From assembly GCA_963842085.1 (NCBI GenBank), contig CAWJET010000002.1:32001-96000 (forward strand): a stretch of DNA of 64,000 bases, read 5' to 3'. This DNA comes from an uncultured delta proteobacterium (lineage in GTDB: Bacteria > Desulfobacterota > Binatia > Binatales > Binataceae). The notes below the pieces were generated by a model. It had not been told where the DNA came from. It did no database searches and was given only the letters and a program-made list of their open reading frames with translations. Position numbers and translations under genes: made by a program. Within the stretch, counting starts at the first letter, position 1, and each line of letters begins with the position of its first letter. Below, piece by piece: positions 16,519 to 51,511 of the stretch.

Positions 16519-18021
16519 TCATTCGATGCCGTACTTGGCGATCTTGGCGTAGAGCTTTTTGCGCGAGATCTTGAGCAGCTTGGCGGCTTGGAGCTTGTTG
16601 CCCTCGGTCGCCTCGAGCGCGCCGCGGATAAGGTCTTGTTCGGCATCGGCGAAACTGCCCACCGGAATTCTTCTGCCGATGGGCGCGCTTTGGCCCGCGC
16701 TCAAACCGGAGATCGACGCCGGCAGGTCCGGCAATCGGATCACGGGCGAGCGGCTGAAGGTGAATGCGGTCTCGATCGCATTGGCAAGTTCGCGGACGTT
16801 GCCCGGCCACGAATAGCGCCGCATCGCTTCGAGCGCTTCGTTTTCGATCCCGGTGACGGGGACCGCCCGCATCTGCCGCGCGTTGAACAGCTCGATGAAA
16901 TGTTCGACCAGCAGCGCCACGTCCTCGGCGCGCTCCCGCAGCGGCGGTATGTGAATGACGCCCGCCTGGAGACGGTAGTAGAGGTCGTCGCGAAGCCGCC
17001 CCGCCTCGACCGCTTCCTGCGGCTCGCGGTTGGTCGAGGCGATCAGGCGCACGTCCACCGCAATCTCTTTGGTCGAGCCTACCGGACGCACCGTGCGCTC
17101 CTGCAGAGCGCGCAGCAGCTTGCTCTGCGTATCGGCGCTCATCTCCGTTACTTCGTCGAGGAACAGAGTCCCGCCCTCAGCCGCGCGGAACAGCCCCAGG
17201 TACTCGGTGTTCGCTCCGCTGAATGCGCCGCGCTTGTATCCGAACAGCTCGCTCTCGATCAGGTCCCTCGGTATAGCCGCGCAGTTGAGCGCGACGAACG
17301 GCGCCGCCGGTTGCGGGCCGCATTCGTGAATGGCGTGCGCCACCAGTTCCTTGCCCGTGCCGCTTTCGCCGACAATTAGAATCGTGCCGCGCGTGGCGCC
17401 TGCCGATTCCACCCGGTCGTACAACTGCCGCATTGCCGCACTGGCGCCGACCAGGCCATGGAAACGGCTGCGGGATTGATTTGGCATCCCGCCGGCCTCG
17501 CGTTCGAGCGCCAGGATTCGCGCTCCGGAGACGGCGGTCTTCGACCGGAAATAGGTATCTGCGAGCACGATCATTCGTATGTGGCTCAGTTTGTCGAACG
17601 AGTGGTAGGTCCGTGGCATCACCGGCGGAAACGATGGAAACGCGGTGGCCGCGCTCTCTTCGAACAGATGTATCGAGACGATCAGCTCTGAGAAGGGGAC
17701 GCCGCGCTCGGCGAGATCCTCCGCAACTCGGGCGATGTCGGCGGCGAAGCGGTCCATGTCTTTGTCGAGCAGATCCTTCAGCGTGGCATCGAGCTCGCCG
17801 CCGAAGATCGCCATGAATTCCACCCTGGTCAGCGCGCGTGTGTCGGCAAAGTGCAGCACGTAGAGCTGGTACCAGTGTTCCAGCACGCGGTCGCGATTTT
17901 TCTGGACGGACTCCAGGACCGGACGAAGGTCGTCGAGCTCCGCGTCCCACAGTAAGTGAAAATAGCGGGGCGTTCCGCTTGGCAGTGAAGCAGGAGGCGC
18001 TGAGGTGGTGTTGGGTTTCAT
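16519..18021 (-). CDS. sigma54 enhancer-binding protein with helical (RsbRD_N/globin-like) sensor domain
   Basis: GESGTGKE, ESELFG..GAFSGA, LFLDEV, WPGNVREL, Fis-type HTH; start uncertain. Confidence 0.9.
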   Translation of the reverse strand: MKPNTTSAPPASLPSGTPRYFHLLWDAELDDLRPVLESVQKNRDRVLEHWYQLYVLHFADTRALTRVEFMAIFGGELDATLKDLLDKDMDRFAADIARVAEDLAERGVPFSELIVSIHLFEESAATAFPSFPPVMPRTYHSFDKLSHIRMIVLADTYFRSKTAVSGARILALEREAGGMPNQSRSRFHGLVGASAAMRQLYDRVESAGATRGTILIVGESGTGKELVAHAIHECGPQPAAPFVALNCAAIPRDLIESELFGYKRGAFSGANTEYLGLFRAAEGGTLFLDEVTEMSADTQSKLLRALQERTVRPVGSTKEIAVDVRLIASTNREPQEAVEAGRLRDDLYYRLQAGVIHIPPLRERAEDVALLVEHFIELFNARQMRAVPVTGIENEALEAMRRYSWPGNVRELANAIETAFTFSRSPVIRLPDLPASISGLSAGQSAPIGRRIPVGSFADAEQDLIRGALEATEGNKLQAAKLLKISRKKLYAKIAKYGIE

Positions 18022-44136: not shown

Positions 44137-44946
44137 ATGACGATGGACGATCGCGCGCTCGGGGAGAACATCGCCTTCGCCTGCCATCTGGCGGACCTCG
44201 CGGGACGCACGATCCTGCCGTATTTTCGCGTGCGCCTCGCGGTCGAGAATAAGACTGCCGGTCGTGGCTACGATCCGGTGACGCTCGCCGATCGTGCGGC
44301 GGAGCAGGCGATTCGTGATGAGATTCAGCGCGTCCATCCCGGCCACGGAATCCTCGGCGAGGAGCATGGCTTTGCCGCCGGGACCGACGGGCTGACGTGG
44401 ATCATCGATCCGATCGACGGCACGCGCGCCTTCATTATCGGACAACTGCATTGGGGCGTATTGATCGCGCTCAACGACGGCGCGCGTCCGGTGATTGGCG
44501 TGATGCATCAGCCATACACCGGCGAGACGTTCGTCGGTTCACGCCTGGGCGCAGAACTGAGGCGTAGCGGTACGAGCAATTCGATTCGGGTGCGCGAATG
44601 CAGGCGGCTCGAAGACGCGATCGTCTGTGCGACCGATCCGGCGATGTTCTCCGGTCCGGGCGAGCGCGACGCGTTCCGCCAGCTCGCCTCGAAGGCACGG
44701 ATGAGACGCTACGGCGGCGATTGTTATTCGTACTGCCTGCTCGCCGCGGGCTTAATCGACTTGGTCATTGAATCGGGGCTGCAGCCTTACGATATCCAGC
44801 CGCTCATCCCGATCATCGACGCCGCAGGTGGAGTCGTGACGAGTTGGGCGGGCGGCTCGCCGTACGATGGCGGGCAGATCATCGCCGCCGGCGATCGCGA
44901 GCTGCACAAAATCGCGCTCGCGATGCTCGCACCCGCCGCGCGATAA
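44137..44946 (+). CDS. hisN: Histidinol-phosphatase (inositol monophosphatase family)
   Basis: DPVT.ADR, GEE, DPIDGTRAF, GGDCY.Y, QPYD. Confidence 0.85.
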   Translation: MTMDDRALGENIAFACHLADLAGRTILPYFRVRLAVENKTAGRGYDPVTLADRAAEQAIRDEIQRVHPGHGILGEEHGFAAGTDGLTWIIDPIDGTRAFIIGQLHWGVLIALNDGARPVIGVMHQPYTGETFVGSRLGAELRRSGTSNSIRVRECRRLEDAIVCATDPAMFSGPGERDAFRQLASKARMRRYGGDCYSYCLLAAGLIDLVIESGLQPYDIQPLIPIIDAAGGVVTSWAGGSPYDGGQIIAAGDRELHKIALAMLAPAAR

Positions 44947-44980
44947 CTAATCCGGTCGCGTCGGTCCCTCTCTGGCCTTT

Positions 44981-45202
44981 TCAGGCCACGGAGTCGCCTT
45001 CCAGCCGGAATCCGATGCGCACCTCCACCTGGAAAGTCGGAGCGCCGGCTCTGTTCACCGCGCCGCGAATATTTCCCACCTCGAACCAGTCGATATTCCG
45101 GATCGTCTGGCGGGCCTTGGTTATGGCGTTGCGCACCGCTTGCTGGATGCTGTCCTCGGACACGCCGACGACCTCGATTATCTTGTACGTCTTATCCGGC
45201 AT
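44981..45202 (-). CDS. Dodecin (flavin-binding)
   Basis: YKIIEVVGVS...RNIDWFEV..IRG...FQV..IGFRL; AGGAG RBS. Confidence 0.92.
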   Translation of the reverse strand: MPDKTYKIIEVVGVSEDSIQQAVRNAITKARQTIRNIDWFEVGNIRGAVNRAGAPTFQVEVRIGFRLEGDSVA

Positions 45203-45334
45203 CGGACTCTCCTTTGCGTGAGAGACACATCGCGGATGCGCGACGCCTCCGCTGGCATCTGGCTCTCCTGCTGCTCTATTCCGAATATCCGGCGGCGCGC
45301 AAGCCTGTCGCCGTCCGCGAATTTGACTGACGCG

Positions 45335-45427
45335 AAAATATAGGCCCGGCAGGGCTGGCGCCGCAAAGCGGGGGAGGCGCTGCGGCTACCAACCCTGCCG
45401 GGAGGGGGGAGGCTTAGTTATCGATCA
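45335..45427 (-). ncRNA. Candidate sigma54-dependent sRNA with CCUCCCC motifs
   Basis: Long stem (45345-45354 pairing with 45393-45402 plus inner helices), apical loop CCUCCCC, 5' CCUCCCCCCU, 3' UAUAUUUU. Confidence 0.6.
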
Positions 45428-45437
45428 CCTGCTATCG

Positions 45438-45453
45438 AGCAATCCTGATGCCA
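45438..45453 (-). promoter_or_regulatory. sigma54 promoter
   Basis: Minus strand TGGCATCAGGATTGCT (GG-N10-GC, TTGCT). Confidence 0.75.
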
Positions 45454-45596
45454 CCAAGCTCGACAGGAATTTCGCACGGCCCACGTGTTTTTTTGCCGTT
45501 TAAGGGCCGTTCGCGAGTGAGAACTGTGTAATAGCTACCCGGAAGTGAGCTGAATTGCAGGTCGAAGAGCTGGAACAGCGGCTATCCGCGGGCGCG

Positions 45597-46343
45597 CTAA
45601 GGTGTGGACGGAATAGCGGAGTCGGCGAGTTTGGGGAGCGGTTCGAGCAGGGTTGAGGCTTTGGTGGCGAGACTCATCGCGGCGACGCTGTCGCGCTCGG
45701 TGAGAGCCTCCTTGGCATCCTGCAACAGCCGCTGGGCGAGAATATCGCGTTGAGAATAGTCGCTGCTCAAATTATTGCGGTCGACTCGTTTTTCGATTCT
45801 GTCGATGTCCTCGATCATTTTCGCCGCCTTGGCGGGATTGGCGTCGCCCGGCGCCCCGGATGCTTCCGACGCCGGCGGACTCAGCGTCGGTGTTCCCGCT
45901 TCAGGCGCGATGCTCGCGGCTGACGCCGCCGCTGCCGGAGTTGCGCGAGCGCCGGCTGGCGTTGCGCCCGGATTGTTCTCCAGACTCACGTCGGGGTTCG
46001 CGCCGGAGGTCTTGACCTGGTTGGACGTATTGGGCGGCTGCTTCGACGTAGTCGCGGCTCGCCTGCCAGTTTTCCTGCTCTCGTGTTCCTTGTTGATTTC
46101 TTCCGCCTCCGGAGTTGCCGAAGGAGGCGCAACTGTCGGCGGAGTCGGAGTAGCGGTCGGCGTCGGAGATTGGGCAGGCGATGATCTGGTAAAGAAATTC
46201 GTGATTTGCGCCATGCTCGGCGTGCCGCCAGAGCATCCGGCCAGAAACATCAATAGGAACGAAAGTGCGACGAGGATCGGCAGAATGAGCGGCCGATTGA
46301 TTCGCTCAGGCAGCGCTGGGAACCGCTGATTTGGCAGGCGCAT
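45597..46343 (-). CDS. Lipoprotein with Pro/Thr/Ala-rich linker and helical C-terminal domain
   Basis: Lipobox LAGC; overlaps the kinase 3' end; start uncertain. Confidence 0.75.
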   Translation of the reverse strand: MRLPNQRFPALPERINRPLILPILVALSFLLMFLAGCSGGTPSMAQITNFFTRSSPAQSPTPTATPTPPTVAPPSATPEAEEINKEHESRKTGRRAATTSKQPPNTSNQVKTSGANPDVSLENNPGATPAGARATPAAAASAASIAPEAGTPTLSPPASEASGAPGDANPAKAAKMIEDIDRIEKRVDRNNLSSDYSQRDILAQRLLQDAKEALTERDSVAAMSLATKASTLLEPLPKLADSAIPSTP

Positions 46344-48111
46344 TGGCTGCAATCGGAATCGTAACCTTGCACACCGTACCTTGACCCAATTCCGACTCGA
46401 TCGCTATCTTCCCGCCGTTTAGTTCGATCGCCCGCATCGCGAACGGCAGGCCGAGCCCACTCCCGCCGGCTTTGGTGGTGAAATACAAGTCGAAGATCCG
46501 GTCCAGCTGCTCCTTGCTCATGCCCGGACCGCGGTCGGCGATTGTGACTTCGACTGCCGGGCCCTGCGACCGGCTGGCAAGCGTCAACCCTCCGCCGTCG
46601 GGCATCGCCTGTTCGGCGTTGGTTATCAAATTGGTCAGCGCTTCGTAAATCAGGCCGCGATCCGCTTGCACCGACGGCAGCGCGGGGTCGAGCTGGTACT
46701 CGACCTTGATCCGCTCGCTGTTGACGCGCGCGCCGAGTTCCTTGAGTAACGCGTTCATGTCGAAGTCGCTCAGCTTCAGTTGCTCGGGCCGCATGAACCG
46801 CAGCAGCGCCTCGACCGCTTCGTCGAGGCGGGTCACCTCATGGCGCAGCTTGTCGATGTGCTTGGCGCCCGCGTCGCCGGCTTCGCGGCGCAGCAGCTCG
46901 AGCCGCATGTTCATCCCGTTGAGCGGGCTGCGCAGTTGATGGGCCAGGCCGGAGATCAGCGTCCCCAGACGCGCGAGCCGATTCGACGAATCGAGCGCGG
47001 TTTCGAGTTCGATCACCGGCGCCAAGTCTCTGAGCACGATCAGCAGGCCGGCTGGAACCCGTTCGCGGCCCAGGCGAAAAAACGAAACCAGGTAGGTGCC
47101 GCCCGCCGGCAGCGCCAGCGGCACGTCGTGCGCTTCGGTGCCGGCCACCGTGGATTGCACCAGCGCCAGCAGCGGATGCCCGGGGTCGAGCGCCGAGGCG
47201 AGCGAGGCGCCCTCGAGCGCGCTGTTTTTCGGCGCCAGCCGCTCCTGCGCTTCCTTGTTCGCGAACAGCACCACGCCGTTGGCGTCGAGCAGCACCACCG
47301 CGTCCTGGATCGAACGGACCACGTCAAACAGATGCGCCTGATCGCTGTCCAGCCGCGACCGATCCTCCCGTACCTGGCGCGACAGTTCATTGAACTTCTC
47401 GGCCAGCGTGCTCAACTCGCCGGTTCCCGAGACCCTCATCTCCGAGGGACTCTTGCCGGCCGCCAGCTGCTCGAACCCGCGCGTCAGGACTGCGAGTTGT
47501 TCGAGAATCCGGTTGGCGATGAGCAACACCACGAGCATCGCGGCCGCGATCACCAGCGCCGCGGTGGCCACGATCACCACCAGCAGACGGCGGGCCTGGT
47601 CGGCAATCAGCGCCGTCGTCACTCCGATCGAGATTGTCACCGCCGGCCGGTTGTTGATGTCCACCTGGCGCCGCGCCTCGTAAACCTTGGCTGTCAGCAG
47701 ACTGGGCAGCGACATGAACAGCAGCCATCGCGAGGCCTGGTCGTCCAGCTCCCTGACCGACGGCAGAGTGAGCGCGGGCTTGCCCTCGCCGTCGCCGTTG
47801 GCCGCCACGATTACGGTGCCGTCGTTGCCGACGATCTGCGCGGACACCACCGCCGGACCAAAGGCAACCGTCGAGTCGAGCAGCCTGCGCAGCGGTTCGC
47901 TGCCGCGCAGCGCGGCCGGAACGTCGCCTTCGCCCTGGGAGAGAGCGAGGCGCACCTGTTCGAAGATCTGCGCGATCATGAAGTCGGCCGAGCGCGACAT
48001 GCCGTCGACCATTGTGTTGACGCGGGAGTCGAGCGAGATGATGCTCAGCGCGACGGTCGGAACCAGCATCAGCATGAGAGCAATAAGGGCCAGTCTTGCT
48101 CGCAGTTGCAT
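46306..48111 (-). CDS. Sensor histidine kinase (periplasmic, HAMP, PAS, HisKA, HATPase)
   Basis: LAHQLRSPL, NLITNA, DRGPG, FTTK..GSGLGL. Confidence 0.95.
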   Translation of the reverse strand: MQLRARLALIALMLMLVPTVALSIISLDSRVNTMVDGMSRSADFMIAQIFEQVRLALSQGEGDVPAALRGSEPLRRLLDSTVAFGPAVVSAQIVGNDGTVIVAANGDGEGKPALTLPSVRELDDQASRWLLFMSLPSLLTAKVYEARRQVDINNRPAVTISIGVTTALIADQARRLLVVIVATAALVIAAAMLVVLLIANRILEQLAVLTRGFEQLAAGKSPSEMRVSGTGELSTLAEKFNELSRQVREDRSRLDSDQAHLFDVVRSIQDAVVLLDANGVVLFANKEAQERLAPKNSALEGASLASALDPGHPLLALVQSTVAGTEAHDVPLALPAGGTYLVSFFRLGRERVPAGLLIVLRDLAPVIELETALDSSNRLARLGTLISGLAHQLRSPLNGMNMRLELLRREAGDAGAKHIDKLRHEVTRLDEAVEALLRFMRPEQLKLSDFDMNALLKELGARVNSERIKVEYQLDPALPSVQADRGLIYEALTNLITNAEQAMPDGGGLTLASRSQGPAVEVTIADRGPGMSKEQLDRIFDLYFTTKAGGSGLGLPFAMRAIELNGGKIAIESELGQGTVCKVTIPIAANAPAKSAVPSAA

Positions 48112-48176: not shown

Positions 48177-49544
<1,368 letters not shown>

Positions 49545-49714
49545 AGATCTCCGCGAATTGTCAATGACTTGTGATGTGCAATAACCGTGCACACGTTGCG
49601 TTCCGAAAATCCCATAATTTATCGACTGTTTTGGCTCAGAGCCCCGAGCCTGGCATCTGTAAGATTTACCGATATCGGCGCGTTCCACCTTCCTAGCTGG
49701 TTTACACTATTGAC

Positions 49715-51511
49715 TCAACGCGCAGATCGATGAGCTGCAGGACCTTCAACCTGCATGAGATTGTGGGCAGTGTTGACCAACGAGACATGCGTGAAGGCTT
49801 GCGGAAAATTACCGAGCTGGCGTTTGAGAACGGGATCGTATTCCTCGGACAGCAGGCCCACGTCATTGCGTAAATCGAGCAGACGCTCGAACAGCGCGCG
49901 CGCCTCCTGATCACGGCCAGCGAGTGCAAGGTTGTCCGCGAGCCAGAACGTGCACGGCAGGAACGCCCCTTCGCCCGGCGGAAGTCCGTCGACGGCGGTC
50001 TCGGTCGGGTACCTGAGCACCAAACCGTGATAGATCAGCTCACGTTGAATTGCGTGGACAGTTGAGATTACGCGCGGATCGTTGGCCGGCAGAAAGCCGA
50101 CCAGCGGAATCATCAGCACTGACGCGTCGAGCGATTTTGAACCGTAGTACTGGACGAAGGCATTGCGCTCGGTGTCGAAGCCACGCTCGCAAACGTCGCG
50201 ATGGATCTCGTCGCGCAAGGCAAGCCAGCGGTCCAAAGGCCCCTCGCCATAACCTCGGCGAATATCCTTGACCGAGCGATCGACCGCTACCCACGCCATC
50301 ACCTTGGAATGCGTGAAATCGCGCCGCGGACCGCGCACCTCCCAGATTCCCTCATCCGCCTGCTTCCAGCCCGACTCGAGGAAGTCCATCAGCGTGCTTT
50401 GAAGGCGCCAGGCGTCATCGTTACGCTCCAGTTTGTACTTGCGTGCGACGTGGAGCGTGTCGATCACTTCGCCGTATACGTCGAGTTGAAATTGCTCATG
50501 CGCGGCGTTGCCGATGCGCACCGGAGCGCTATTCTCATAGCCGGGCAGCCATGGAAGCTCTGACTCGGTAAGCATCCGCTCGCCCGCAACTCCATACATA
50601 ATCTGGGTATCTTGCGGATGGCCTGCTATCGCTCTGAGCAGCCATTCCCGCCACGCACGCGCCTCATCCGTATAGCCGGAAATCAGCAATGCATAGAGCG
50701 TAAAGGTCGAGTCGCGCAGCCAGCTATAGCGATAGTCCCAGTTGCGCGGACCGCCCAGACTTTCGGGAAGAGAAGTAGTCGGCGCGGCGACAATCCCTCC
50801 CGTCGGCGCGTAGGTGAGAGCCTTCAGCGTGATAAGGGAGCGTACGACGGTGTCGCGCCATTCGCCCCGGCAACCGCAGCGGCCGGCCCAGTCGCGCCAC
50901 CATTGTTCGGTGGCTGAGAGCATGCGGAGCGGATCGTCTTCGCCCGGCTCGGCTTGATTGGACGGATACCAGGTCAGCCTGAACGGCACGGATTGACCTT
51001 CGGCGACAGTGAATTCCGCGAAGGTAGTATAATCCTCGCTGCGCAGTGGGACCGCCGTTCGCAGCGCGATCGCGTTGGGTCCCGAGACCGCGCTGAGGCC
51101 GTAGTCGCGTCTTCGAACCCATGGGATCGTGCGTCCGTAGTCGAAACGGAAGTTCAGTTCCGCTCGCATCGCAACGCTCCCGCGGATGCCCTGCACGACT
51201 CGAACGACATCGACTTGCTCGGGCCCCTCGGCGATCGGCATGAAGTCGACGACCGTGGCGACGCCGCCGTCGGTCTCGAACTCGGTTTCGAGCAAGAGCG
51301 TATCATCGCGATACCGGCGCCGGACCTGCCTGACCTCGCTCTGCGGCGCCAGGAGCCAACGTCCGTTCTTCTCGTCGCCGAGGATCGAAGCGAAGCACGC
51401 GCCGGAATCAAACCGAGGCAAACATAGCCAGTCGATCGAGCCGGTACGGCTGACGAGCGCCGCCGTGCAGAGGTTTCCAATCAGCGCGTAGTCCTCGATC
51501 GGCCGGCTCAT
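49715..51511 (-). CDS. Glycoside hydrolase family 15 (glucoamylase/trehalase-like)
   Basis: IEDYALIG, RNWDYRYSWLRD, GIWEVRG, LGNFPQAFTH. Confidence 0.95.
   Translation of the reverse strand: MSRPIEDYALIGNLCTAALVSRTGSIDWLCLPRFDSGACFASILGDEKNGRWLLAPQSEVRQVRRRYRDDTLLLETEFETDGGVATVVDFMPIAEGPEQVDVVRVVQGIRGSVAMRAELNFRFDYGRTIPWVRRRDYGLSAVSGPNAIALRTAVPLRSEDYTTFAEFTVAEGQSVPFRLTWYPSNQAEPGEDDPLRMLSATEQWWRDWAGRCGCRGEWRDTVVRSLITLKALTYAPTGGIVAAPTTSLPESLGGPRNWDYRYSWLRDSTFTLYALLISGYTDEARAWREWLLRAIAGHPQDTQIMYGVAGERMLTESELPWLPGYENSAPVRIGNAAHEQFQLDVYGEVIDTLHVARKYKLERNDDAWRLQSTLMDFLESGWKQADEGIWEVRGPRRDFTHSKVMAWVAVDRSVKDIRRGYGEGPLDRWLALRDEIHRDVCERGFDTERNAFVQYYGSKSLDASVLMIPLVGFLPANDPRVISTVHAIQRELIYHGLVLRYPTETAVDGLPPGEGAFLPCTFWLADNLALAGRDQEARALFERLLDLRNDVGLLSEEYDPVLKRQLGNFPQAFTHVSLVNTAHNLMQVEGPAAHRSAR

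Follow-up and report, generated by a model that had tools for sequence, protein, structure and literature searches.

A putative ORF-less, sigma-54-driven small RNA from a previously uncatalogued, genus-restricted RNA family

On the minus strand of the 64,000-nucleotide stretch of DNA analysed here (the window) lies a compact unit (45333-45584) that comprises an upstream region, a sigma-54 promoter and an ORF-less RNA element, and that is bounded by a 971-bp duplicated segment (ending at 45585) on one side and by the upstream block of a dodecin gene (from ~45324) on the other. The reading favoured here, with a probability of roughly 0.55, is that this unit encodes an ORF-less, sigma-54-driven small RNA (sRNA) of ~93 nt that acts through anti-Shine-Dalgarno motifs and belongs to a genus-restricted family. 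The window copy itself probably makes only this ~93-base RNA. A preliminary description of the locus had proposed an unannotated trans-acting translational regulator, an interpretation that is supported by the comparisons reported below and that appears to have been largely right.

According to the proposed mechanism, the ancestral unit would have had an activator site upstream of a -24/-12 promoter, then a short leader leading into a 27-28-aa SEC-C ORF, then a single-stranded CU/C-rich motif and a long hairpin, rich in GC and capped by a CCUCCCC(C) apical loop, and finally a U tail. The leader and ORF (~105-110 nt) would have been deleted in the window copy, so that, with an NtrC-type activator driving the RpoN holoenzyme, transcription would start near 45427 and terminate near 45335 to give a ~93-nt non-coding RNA. 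The two exposed C-rich motifs of this RNA could then pair with the G-rich Shine-Dalgarno regions of target mRNAs and block the initiation of translation. The sequence features, the homology, the conservation of promoter and structure and the repeated loss of the ORF are shown by the analysis, whereas we infer that the unit is transcribed, where its RNA begins and ends, that it acts in trans and which activator drives it. A crude scan for G-rich Shine-Dalgarno sequences returned 112 candidate starts and singled out no specific target.

The element in the window

The promoter (TGGCATCAGGATTGCT, 45453-45438, on the minus strand like the other parts of the unit) is a strict sigma-54 motif in which GG (45452-45451) and GC (45440-45439) stand in the GG-N10-GC spacing that is canonical for -24/-12 elements, and transcription is predicted to start near 45427. 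It had been described as a near-consensus sigma-54 promoter about 235 nt before the next start codon, which holds true, as 236 nt separate it from the dodecin ATG at 45202. A C-rich, anti-Shine-Dalgarno-like motif (motif 1, CCUCCCCCCU, 45412-45403) begins 25 nt past the promoter, is unpaired in the centroid fold and leads directly into a 58-nt hairpin (45402-45345) with 24 pairs in the minimum free energy (MFE) structure and a folding energy of -48 kcal/mol. The apical loop of the hairpin reads CUCCCCC (45376-45370), motif 2 being CCUCCCC at 45377-45371. Taken as a whole, the 101-nt stretch has an MFE of -49.9 kcal/mol (z = -4.4), and none of 200 shuffled sequences was equally stable. Directly 3' of the GC-rich hairpin comes a U-rich tail (CCUAUAUUUU, 45344-45335), and the two together have the form of an intrinsic terminator. 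The U tail of the window copy (UAUAUUUU) is weaker than the tails of relatives (e.g. UUUCUUUUUU), and a terminator consensus scan did not flag the window hairpin, probably owing to its internal bulges and its length. The arrangement claimed in the preliminary description, that is, a single-stranded C-rich stretch, a long hairpin exposing CCUCCCC and then a tail, is present in all its parts on the minus strand; folding confirms the hairpin and leaves the first motif unpaired, and the product predicted here (45427 to ~45335, minus strand) agrees with the ~93 nt that had been suggested for the transcript.

The motif CCTCCCC is itself scarce in this genome, with 226 occurrences observed against ~1605 expected from base composition, a depletion of about sevenfold. 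Same-strand pairs of CCTCCCC within 80 nt of each other occur in only two places in 4.93 Mb, one of which is the window element. The other place (C1:2431731-2431769) was considered as a possible sibling and rejected, having no promoter or hairpin of such kind. The features of the unit exceed what chance would produce.

Distribution of the family

The family is effectively invisible to primary-sequence searches. BLASTN with 45200-45600 and 45325-45590 against 40 and 46 relatives yielded no homologue of the element, the only hits being the dodecin upstream block or chance matches of 20 nt, a null result that is a failure of sensitivity and not evidence of absence. A metagenome scan with the exact 20-mer CCTCCCCCCTCCCGGCAGGG gave two matches, both unrelated on inspection, and a pattern scan of genome contigs retrieved no relatives of the window element, only an unrelated family from Coriobacteriia.

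A covariance model (R1) based on nothing but the window sequence and its fold, on the other hand, was matched over its full length in 21 genomes of the genus (E 1.6e-14 to 6.2e-6) and revealed a second copy in the source genome (G000:C2:1672795-1672895, plus strand), the unit there extending about 140 nt further upstream. When the model was rebuilt from 24 copies (R2), 22 of 46 relatives within the genus matched at E <= 2e-14, with one further weak partial match. The 24 copies analysed throughout are the two in the source genome and 22 in 21 relatives, the copy in G046 being left out; the genome counts include two genomes flagged as unpublished (G018 and G023), both negative. The search was extended to a class-wide sample of 150 other genomes, of which five belong to the same genus, 12 to other genera of the family and 133 to the remainder of the class. 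The only full-length match among the five was in G059, a genome already counted, none of the 12 genomes from sister genera matched, and two of the 133 remaining genomes gave weak partial matches only. Judged by these models, the element represents a real family of predicted RNA units that is restricted to one genus and occurs in about half of its species.

The preliminary description had allowed that the hairpin might be only a dispersed repeat. BLAST finds no second copy in the genome, which argues against such a repeat, and the covariance models place no more than one or two copies in each genome, so that the element behaves neither as a dispersed repeat nor as a REP sequence. A cmscan of 44900-45700 against Rfam 15 (E <= 10) returned only four chance-level matches to miRNA and snoRNA families, the loci of five relatives had no match at E <= 0.1, and no description of the element was found in open-access text. 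By these comparisons the element is a previously uncatalogued, new genus-level family of putative RNAs.

The unit retrieved from Coriobacteriia deserves separate mention. It occurs in Coriobacteriia and other Actinomycetota MAGs (for example L091 1214-1345 and L106 2368-2500, both on the plus strand), is unrelated to the window element and also has a sigma-54 promoter. Present in about 36 of the 41 loci L091-L131 and conserved in a MAFFT alignment, it is laid out as TGGCAT-N5-TTGCT, ~30 nt, a hairpin with the loop CUCCUCCCCCCUCA, another hairpin that carries CCCCCC in its loop, and finally a U-rich tail. Two loci were scanned against Rfam and neither had a match. It looks like an independent family of sigma-54-driven sRNAs with C-rich loops.

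Anatomy and conservation of the family

In 19 of the 24 copies the sigma-54 motif lies 110-121 nt before the start of the model. Next come a leader and then a 27-28-aa ORF preceded by a GGAGG Shine-Dalgarno sequence, the typical product of this ORF being MANKPNPSAPCPCGSGKPYRDCCGKDSK. The product matches the SEC-C motif PF02810, a CxC...CC/CH metal-binding motif, at 31.8 bits (cut-off 20.4), and no SEC-C ORF is present in the window copy. When the 17 ORFs that share one length are compared, variation is seen at 21 of 28 third codon positions as against eight of 28 first and seven of 28 second positions, a third-position bias which indicates that the ORF is truly coding. Directly 3' of its stop codon follow the CU/C-rich motif, the hairpin and the U-rich tail, so arranged that in most relatives the C-rich hairpin is, to judge from this layout, the 3' end and terminator of the SEC-C ORF.

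Mean pairwise identities among the 19 copies with an intact ORF show where constraint is concentrated. In conservation the hairpin (0.80) equals the coding ORF beside it (0.82, or 0.69 at third codon positions) and far exceeds the flanking spacers, namely the sequence far upstream (0.36), the region between upstream block and promoter (0.32) and the downstream spacer (0.30). Intermediate values were obtained for the upstream block (0.56), the promoter (0.75), the leader (0.48), the motif 1 region (0.65) and the tail (0.60). In an alignment fitted to the model, which by its nature leans towards structure, 91.5% of cells are paired, against 22-52% when the partners are slid, and nine hairpin pairs change on both sides across the 24 copies, values that none of 500 shuffles reached. 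RNAalifold independently gives the same helix, with seven of 19 pairs compensatory and one column pair divided between CG (11 copies) and AU (10 copies). The covariation that the preliminary description had looked to relatives for is thus found, the hairpin being paired and carrying compensatory changes across all 24 copies. In the window the hairpin is fully paired, a close relative (L135) having two non-standard pairs, and its outermost pair is C-G as against U-A in 21 copies.

Conservation extends to the unpaired bases. CCUCCCC is kept in 22 of the 24 loops, a C-rich loop and the hairpin are present in all 24 copies, and in all 24 the stem is immediately preceded on its 5' side by a CU-rich run that ends in CCCC(C). 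A terminator requires structure and not a fixed loop, and the loop is nonetheless kept, so that the exposed CCUCC-type motifs are conserved beyond the requirements of structure. Counting against the sRNA reading is the fact that motif 1 is often CCUUCC instead of CCUCC.

Predicted sigma-54 control and the downstream genes

The genome encodes RpoN (PF04552, 215.7 bits) and has about 24 full sigma-54 activators, with 24 strong matches to PF00158. The strict motif TGGCAY-N5-TTGCW occurs 19 times in the 4.93-Mb genome, where ~7 occurrences would be expected by base-composition arithmetic, and 13 of these lie within the ~18% that a crude, GC3-based gene model leaves uncovered. Five of these strict motifs in the source genome have the form TGGCAYATTNATTGCT (C1:30458, C1:1662148, C1:2553913, C2:1286033 and C2:824893) and may constitute a paralogous promoter set.

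A sigma-54 motif stands upstream of the element in all 24 copies analysed. Promoter-anchored alignment further revealed, ~63-79 nt upstream of the -24 element of the window copy, a block that resembles an activator site (ATTACACAGTTCTCACT, 45532-45516, minus strand). This 17-nt block, with the consensus ATTACAYRGTTCYCACT (also ATTACAYRGTTCYCAC), is conserved ~60-80 nt before the promoter in 23 of the 24 copies, where it is a candidate activator-binding site; that of one relative (L146) is identical to the window's. Between block and promoter lies an A7 tract (45494-45488, minus strand) that might serve as a bend or IHF region, and A-rich runs occupy the same place in most copies.

Downstream of the unit, 130 nt past the tail, lies the dodecin gene (PF07311, 44981-45202, minus strand), possibly a cargo of read-through transcription. 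In most relatives ~35-40 nt separate the tail from the start of a gene for a DUF6496 protein (PF20106), which has a Shine-Dalgarno sequence and no evident promoter of its own, and the hairpin that precedes this gene may be a leaky terminator or an intercistronic element, and not the end of an sRNA. From these arrangements comes a serious, if unlikely, alternative, in which the unit is a promoter followed by a leaky terminator: the sigma-54 promoter would transcribe dodecin by read-through, as it may DUF6496 in the relatives, and the hairpin would be an attenuator or stabiliser with the short RNA as a by-product, a reading that is compatible with the sRNA. The U tail that separates dodecin from the hairpin is rather weak, and the genes clustered near these sigma-54 promoters, those for CsbD, BON-domain and DUF6496 proteins and for dodecin, all encode small proteins, both of which suit read-through. 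The hairpin, however, is very stable (-48 kcal/mol) and directly followed by a U-rich tail, an attenuator role leaves the conservation of the loop sequence unexplained, and dodecin keeps a conserved upstream block of its own where no RNA unit precedes it. This block of ~110 nt (in the window 45203-45324, minus strand; core CTTGCGCGCCGGCAGATATTCGGAATAGAGCAGCA) is found in roughly half of 29 relatives and travels with dodecin, the sequence further upstream being unrelated among them. Its role could be that of a promoter, operator or leader. A sigma-54 promoter can be discounted: a second sigma-54-like motif nearer to dodecin (CGGCGACAGGCTTGCG) was rejected on the ground that relatives keep the rest of the block but not the GG of this motif.

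Loss of the ORF

Pairwise alignments of the window copy with those of G045, G059, G009 and G016 show that upstream region, promoter and 3' element are homologous on either side of one large gap. The distance from promoter to model is 9 nt in the window as against 110-121 nt in the ORF-bearing copies, which means that ~105-110 nt, corresponding to leader and ORF, are missing. On this comparison the window copy is a derivative in which the promoter has been fused almost directly to the RNA element. A first MAFFT alignment had suggested instead that the promoter was decayed coding sequence of the ORF, a view overturned by the promoter-anchored and pairwise alignments.

Nor is the window copy alone in this respect. 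The ORF is absent from two of the 24 copies (the window and G055) and damaged in another three, with promoter and hairpin kept in all five. G055 has a different deletion, which leaves 37 nt between promoter and model; G045 has an internal deletion and a stop codon, G049 a premature stop, and the second copy in the source genome has lost two of the four cysteines. A tree built from the non-coding parts groups each of G055, G049 and the source genome's second copy with ORF-bearing copies (supports 81/71, 97/96 and 85/94) and leaves the window copy and G045 in a poorly resolved part, but their lesions differ. Thus at least three of the five damaged or ORF-less copies have ORF-bearing copies as their closest relatives in the tree, and the ORF has been lost repeatedly.

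Such losses invite a further explanation, a lesser rival than read-through and an improbable one, namely that the window copy is the decaying relic of a SEC-C small-gene locus broken by rearrangement, in which promoter and hairpin persist merely for want of time. Besides the deletion of the ORF, this explanation can draw on the length of the terminal branch that leads to the window copy (0.45, compared with 0.05-0.07 for G045, G061 and G059), which could reflect relaxed constraint, and on a source genome that has no DUF6496 and no intact small SEC-C ORF. The other copy in that genome, 2.3 kb downstream of a lipoprotein fragment, a csbD gene and a BON-like gene, is itself degenerate, as its upstream block is degraded, its tail is poor and half of its cysteines are gone, so that it is probably decaying. 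Moreover, the locus borders a 971-bp duplication of 99.9% identity, which implies that the rearrangement was recent. Against decay stand the parts that would constitute the sRNA gene: all 24 hairpin pairs form in spite of the long branch, both partners having changed in comparison with close relatives; the promoter matches the strict consensus and its upstream block is the same as in L146; neither C-rich motif is damaged; and the independent ORF deletion in G055 retained the same parts.

The ORF-less copies also bear on the possibility, which we consider very improbable, that the element acts in cis, its C-rich motifs pairing with the Shine-Dalgarno sequence of its own ORF or of the downstream gene for autoregulation, in which case the window copy would be functionless or repurposed. 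The GGAGG of the ORF is complementary to CCUCC, and motifs and ORF share one transcript in 19 of the 24 copies. Yet when the 19 intact transcripts were folded, the Shine-Dalgarno sequence paired with motif 1 with a mean probability of only 0.12 (above 0.5 in two of the 19) and with the loop with a probability of 0.00, and the motifs persist in both copies that have no ORF.

The adjacent operon and the history of the locus

Upstream of the unit, and likewise on the minus strand, is an activator-kinase-lipoprotein operon. It consists of an NtrC-type sigma-54 activator (REC, Sigma54_activat and HTH_8 domains; 48177-49688), which lies 2.7 kb upstream of the window promoter and is a candidate regulator, a sensor histidine kinase (HAMP, PAS, HisKA and HATPase_c domains; 46306-48111) and, as its last gene, a predicted lipoprotein of 251 aa with the lipobox LAGC and no Pfam family (45597-46352). 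Directly upstream of the activator gene is a gene for a GH15 trehalase-like glycoside hydrolase (49715-51511, minus strand), and a second sigma-54 activator gene occurs elsewhere in the window (16957-17454, minus strand; G000:C2:48957-49454). In relatives, orthologues of the kinase (73-91% identical) adjoin the lipoprotein gene, and the pair is followed, ~100-170 nt past the lipoprotein stop codon, by a sigma-54 promoter and a csbD gene. This promoter, mostly TGGCCCTATACTTGCT, is present in 27 of 28 such loci (L052-L079) and is likely to be the ancestral target of the activator-kinase-lipoprotein system. It has an upstream block of its own, CGGAATCGTGAAGAAATTAC, ~55-75 nt before the -24 element. 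An activator site common to the csbD promoters and the RNA units was sought by eye and is not claimed here, the resemblance amounting only to a vague TTCTYCAC; separately, TTCGGAAT is common to the dodecin and csbD upstream blocks.

The source genome holds two partial duplicates of this region. A 971-bp segment (C1:2183813-2184783) is 99.9% identical to 45585-46555, that is, to the 3' end of the kinase and the lipoprotein gene, and keeps no more of the kinase than its last 85 aa; a 530-bp segment (C2:1669953-1670482) is 93% identical. Both precede the sigma-54 promoter TGGCCCTATACTTGCT and a csbD gene, as in the relatives. In the window, homology to the duplicates stops 12 nt past the lipoprotein stop codon and the RNA unit begins, which indicates that its juxtaposition with the two-component operon is the product of rearrangement, and the unit lies within 3 kb of the operon in only two of 22 positive relatives (G058 and G050). 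That the hairpin is a mere terminator of this operon and the sigma-54 motif a chance occurrence is hardly credible, for although the window hairpin lies 195 nt past the stop codon of the lipoprotein gene and shares its strand, the hairpin of the relatives is usually on other contigs or 60 kb to 1.3 Mb from the operon and is always preceded by its own sigma-54 promoter, and it is the csbD promoter that comes after the operon there.

All 22 RNA-positive relatives are among the 29 that have the lipoprotein gene of the operon and none of the 17 genomes without that gene has the RNA, a co-occurrence that is suggestive, although related genomes do not count as independent samples. The adjacent activator-kinase-lipoprotein operon is only a candidate source of the activator of the putative sRNA.

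Significance

With regard to the family as a whole, one may ask what the combination of peptide and hairpin signifies. We tentatively suggest, at less than even odds, that it is an uncatalogued dual-function RNA family in which a stress or nutrient signal relayed by sigma-54 yields both a 28-aa, zinc-finger-like SEC-C peptide and a riboregulator residing in the terminator hairpin, the latter being the more durable of the two. If this were true, the step from the 3' end of an mRNA to a free-standing sRNA gene would have been caught under way, and the series that runs from an intact ORF through a stop codon, lost cysteines and an internal deletion to complete deletion would depict a regulator outliving its ORF. 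A sigma-54-controlled riboregulator would thereby be added to a mostly uncultured genus known from metagenome-assembled genomes, and the Coriobacteriia unit would make the association of sigma-54 with C-rich loops a convergent design. The analysis also points to a testable sigma-54 regulon of small proteins (CsbD, BON-domain and DUF6496 proteins, the SEC-C peptide and possibly dodecin). In terms of method, a covariance model made from a single sequence recovered a family that BLAST misses entirely.

Comparison with known systems

Stand-alone sigma-54-dependent sRNAs encoded beside two-component activators include CrcZ (CbrAB), NrsZ (NtrBC), Qrr (LuxO) and GlmY (GlrKR), which act by protein sequestration or through other types of seed. 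The window element shares with them a -24/-12 promoter motif, a short predicted RNA ended by a putative terminator and an adjacent NtrC-type operon, and has a candidate for the upstream activator site found in them; it differs in that it has no Rfam match and in that its proximity to the operon stems from rearrangement and recurs in only two of 22 positive relatives. C-rich or anti-Shine-Dalgarno loops are a feature of the AbcR (ar15) and RsaE-type sRNAs, and the window element resembles these in having one single-stranded and one loop-exposed C-rich motif with the potential to pair with ribosome-binding sites, but Rfam gives no match and promoter type, architecture and taxon are different. 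Dual-function sRNAs are exemplified by SgrS/SgrT and RNAIII/hld. The likeness here is that in 19 of the 24 copies one predicted transcript combines an ORF under purifying selection with a conserved candidate base-pairing element, whereas in the window the ORF is gone and, in the family, the functions of peptide and riboregulator are both putative.

Neither the window nor the loci of relatives scanned had a covariance match in Rfam to cuckoo/ar14 (CcsR) or AbcR/ar15, and these scans together with the architecture exclude membership in either family. An sRNA located at the 3' end of an RpoN-dependent mRNA has been described in Campylobacter jejuni, where CJnc230 (FlmE) represses translation of its targets (PMC11187230). 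It is unrelated in sequence and context to the window copy, which has its own putative sigma-54 promoter directly upstream.

The closest analogue is the ccaF1-CcsR ('cuckoo') locus of Rhodobacter sphaeroides, in which the RNAs CcsR1-4 (Rfam ar14 group) lie downstream of the DUF1127 gene ccaF1, and the small ORF and the anti-Shine-Dalgarno hairpins with C-rich loops share one stress-induced transcript, the sRNAs arising from its 3' UTR (PMC8034643). Each of these RNAs has two hairpins whose loops carry CCUCCUCCC, and tandem arrays and dependence on RpoHI/HII are described as well (PMC8034643). Set against this description, the window family has one hairpin, a CUCCCCC/CCUCCCC(C) loop in place of CCUCCUCCC and a second motif that is single-stranded; its promoter is predicted to depend on sigma-54 and not on RpoHI/HII, its ORF encodes a 28-aa SEC-C motif and not a DUF1127 protein, and the genus is different and does not look alphaproteobacterial, clusters of proteins similar to the lipoprotein giving a weak hint of Acidobacteriota. 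What the two have in common is a small ORF and a C-rich anti-Shine-Dalgarno hairpin on one transcript, in locus configurations that vary between taxa.
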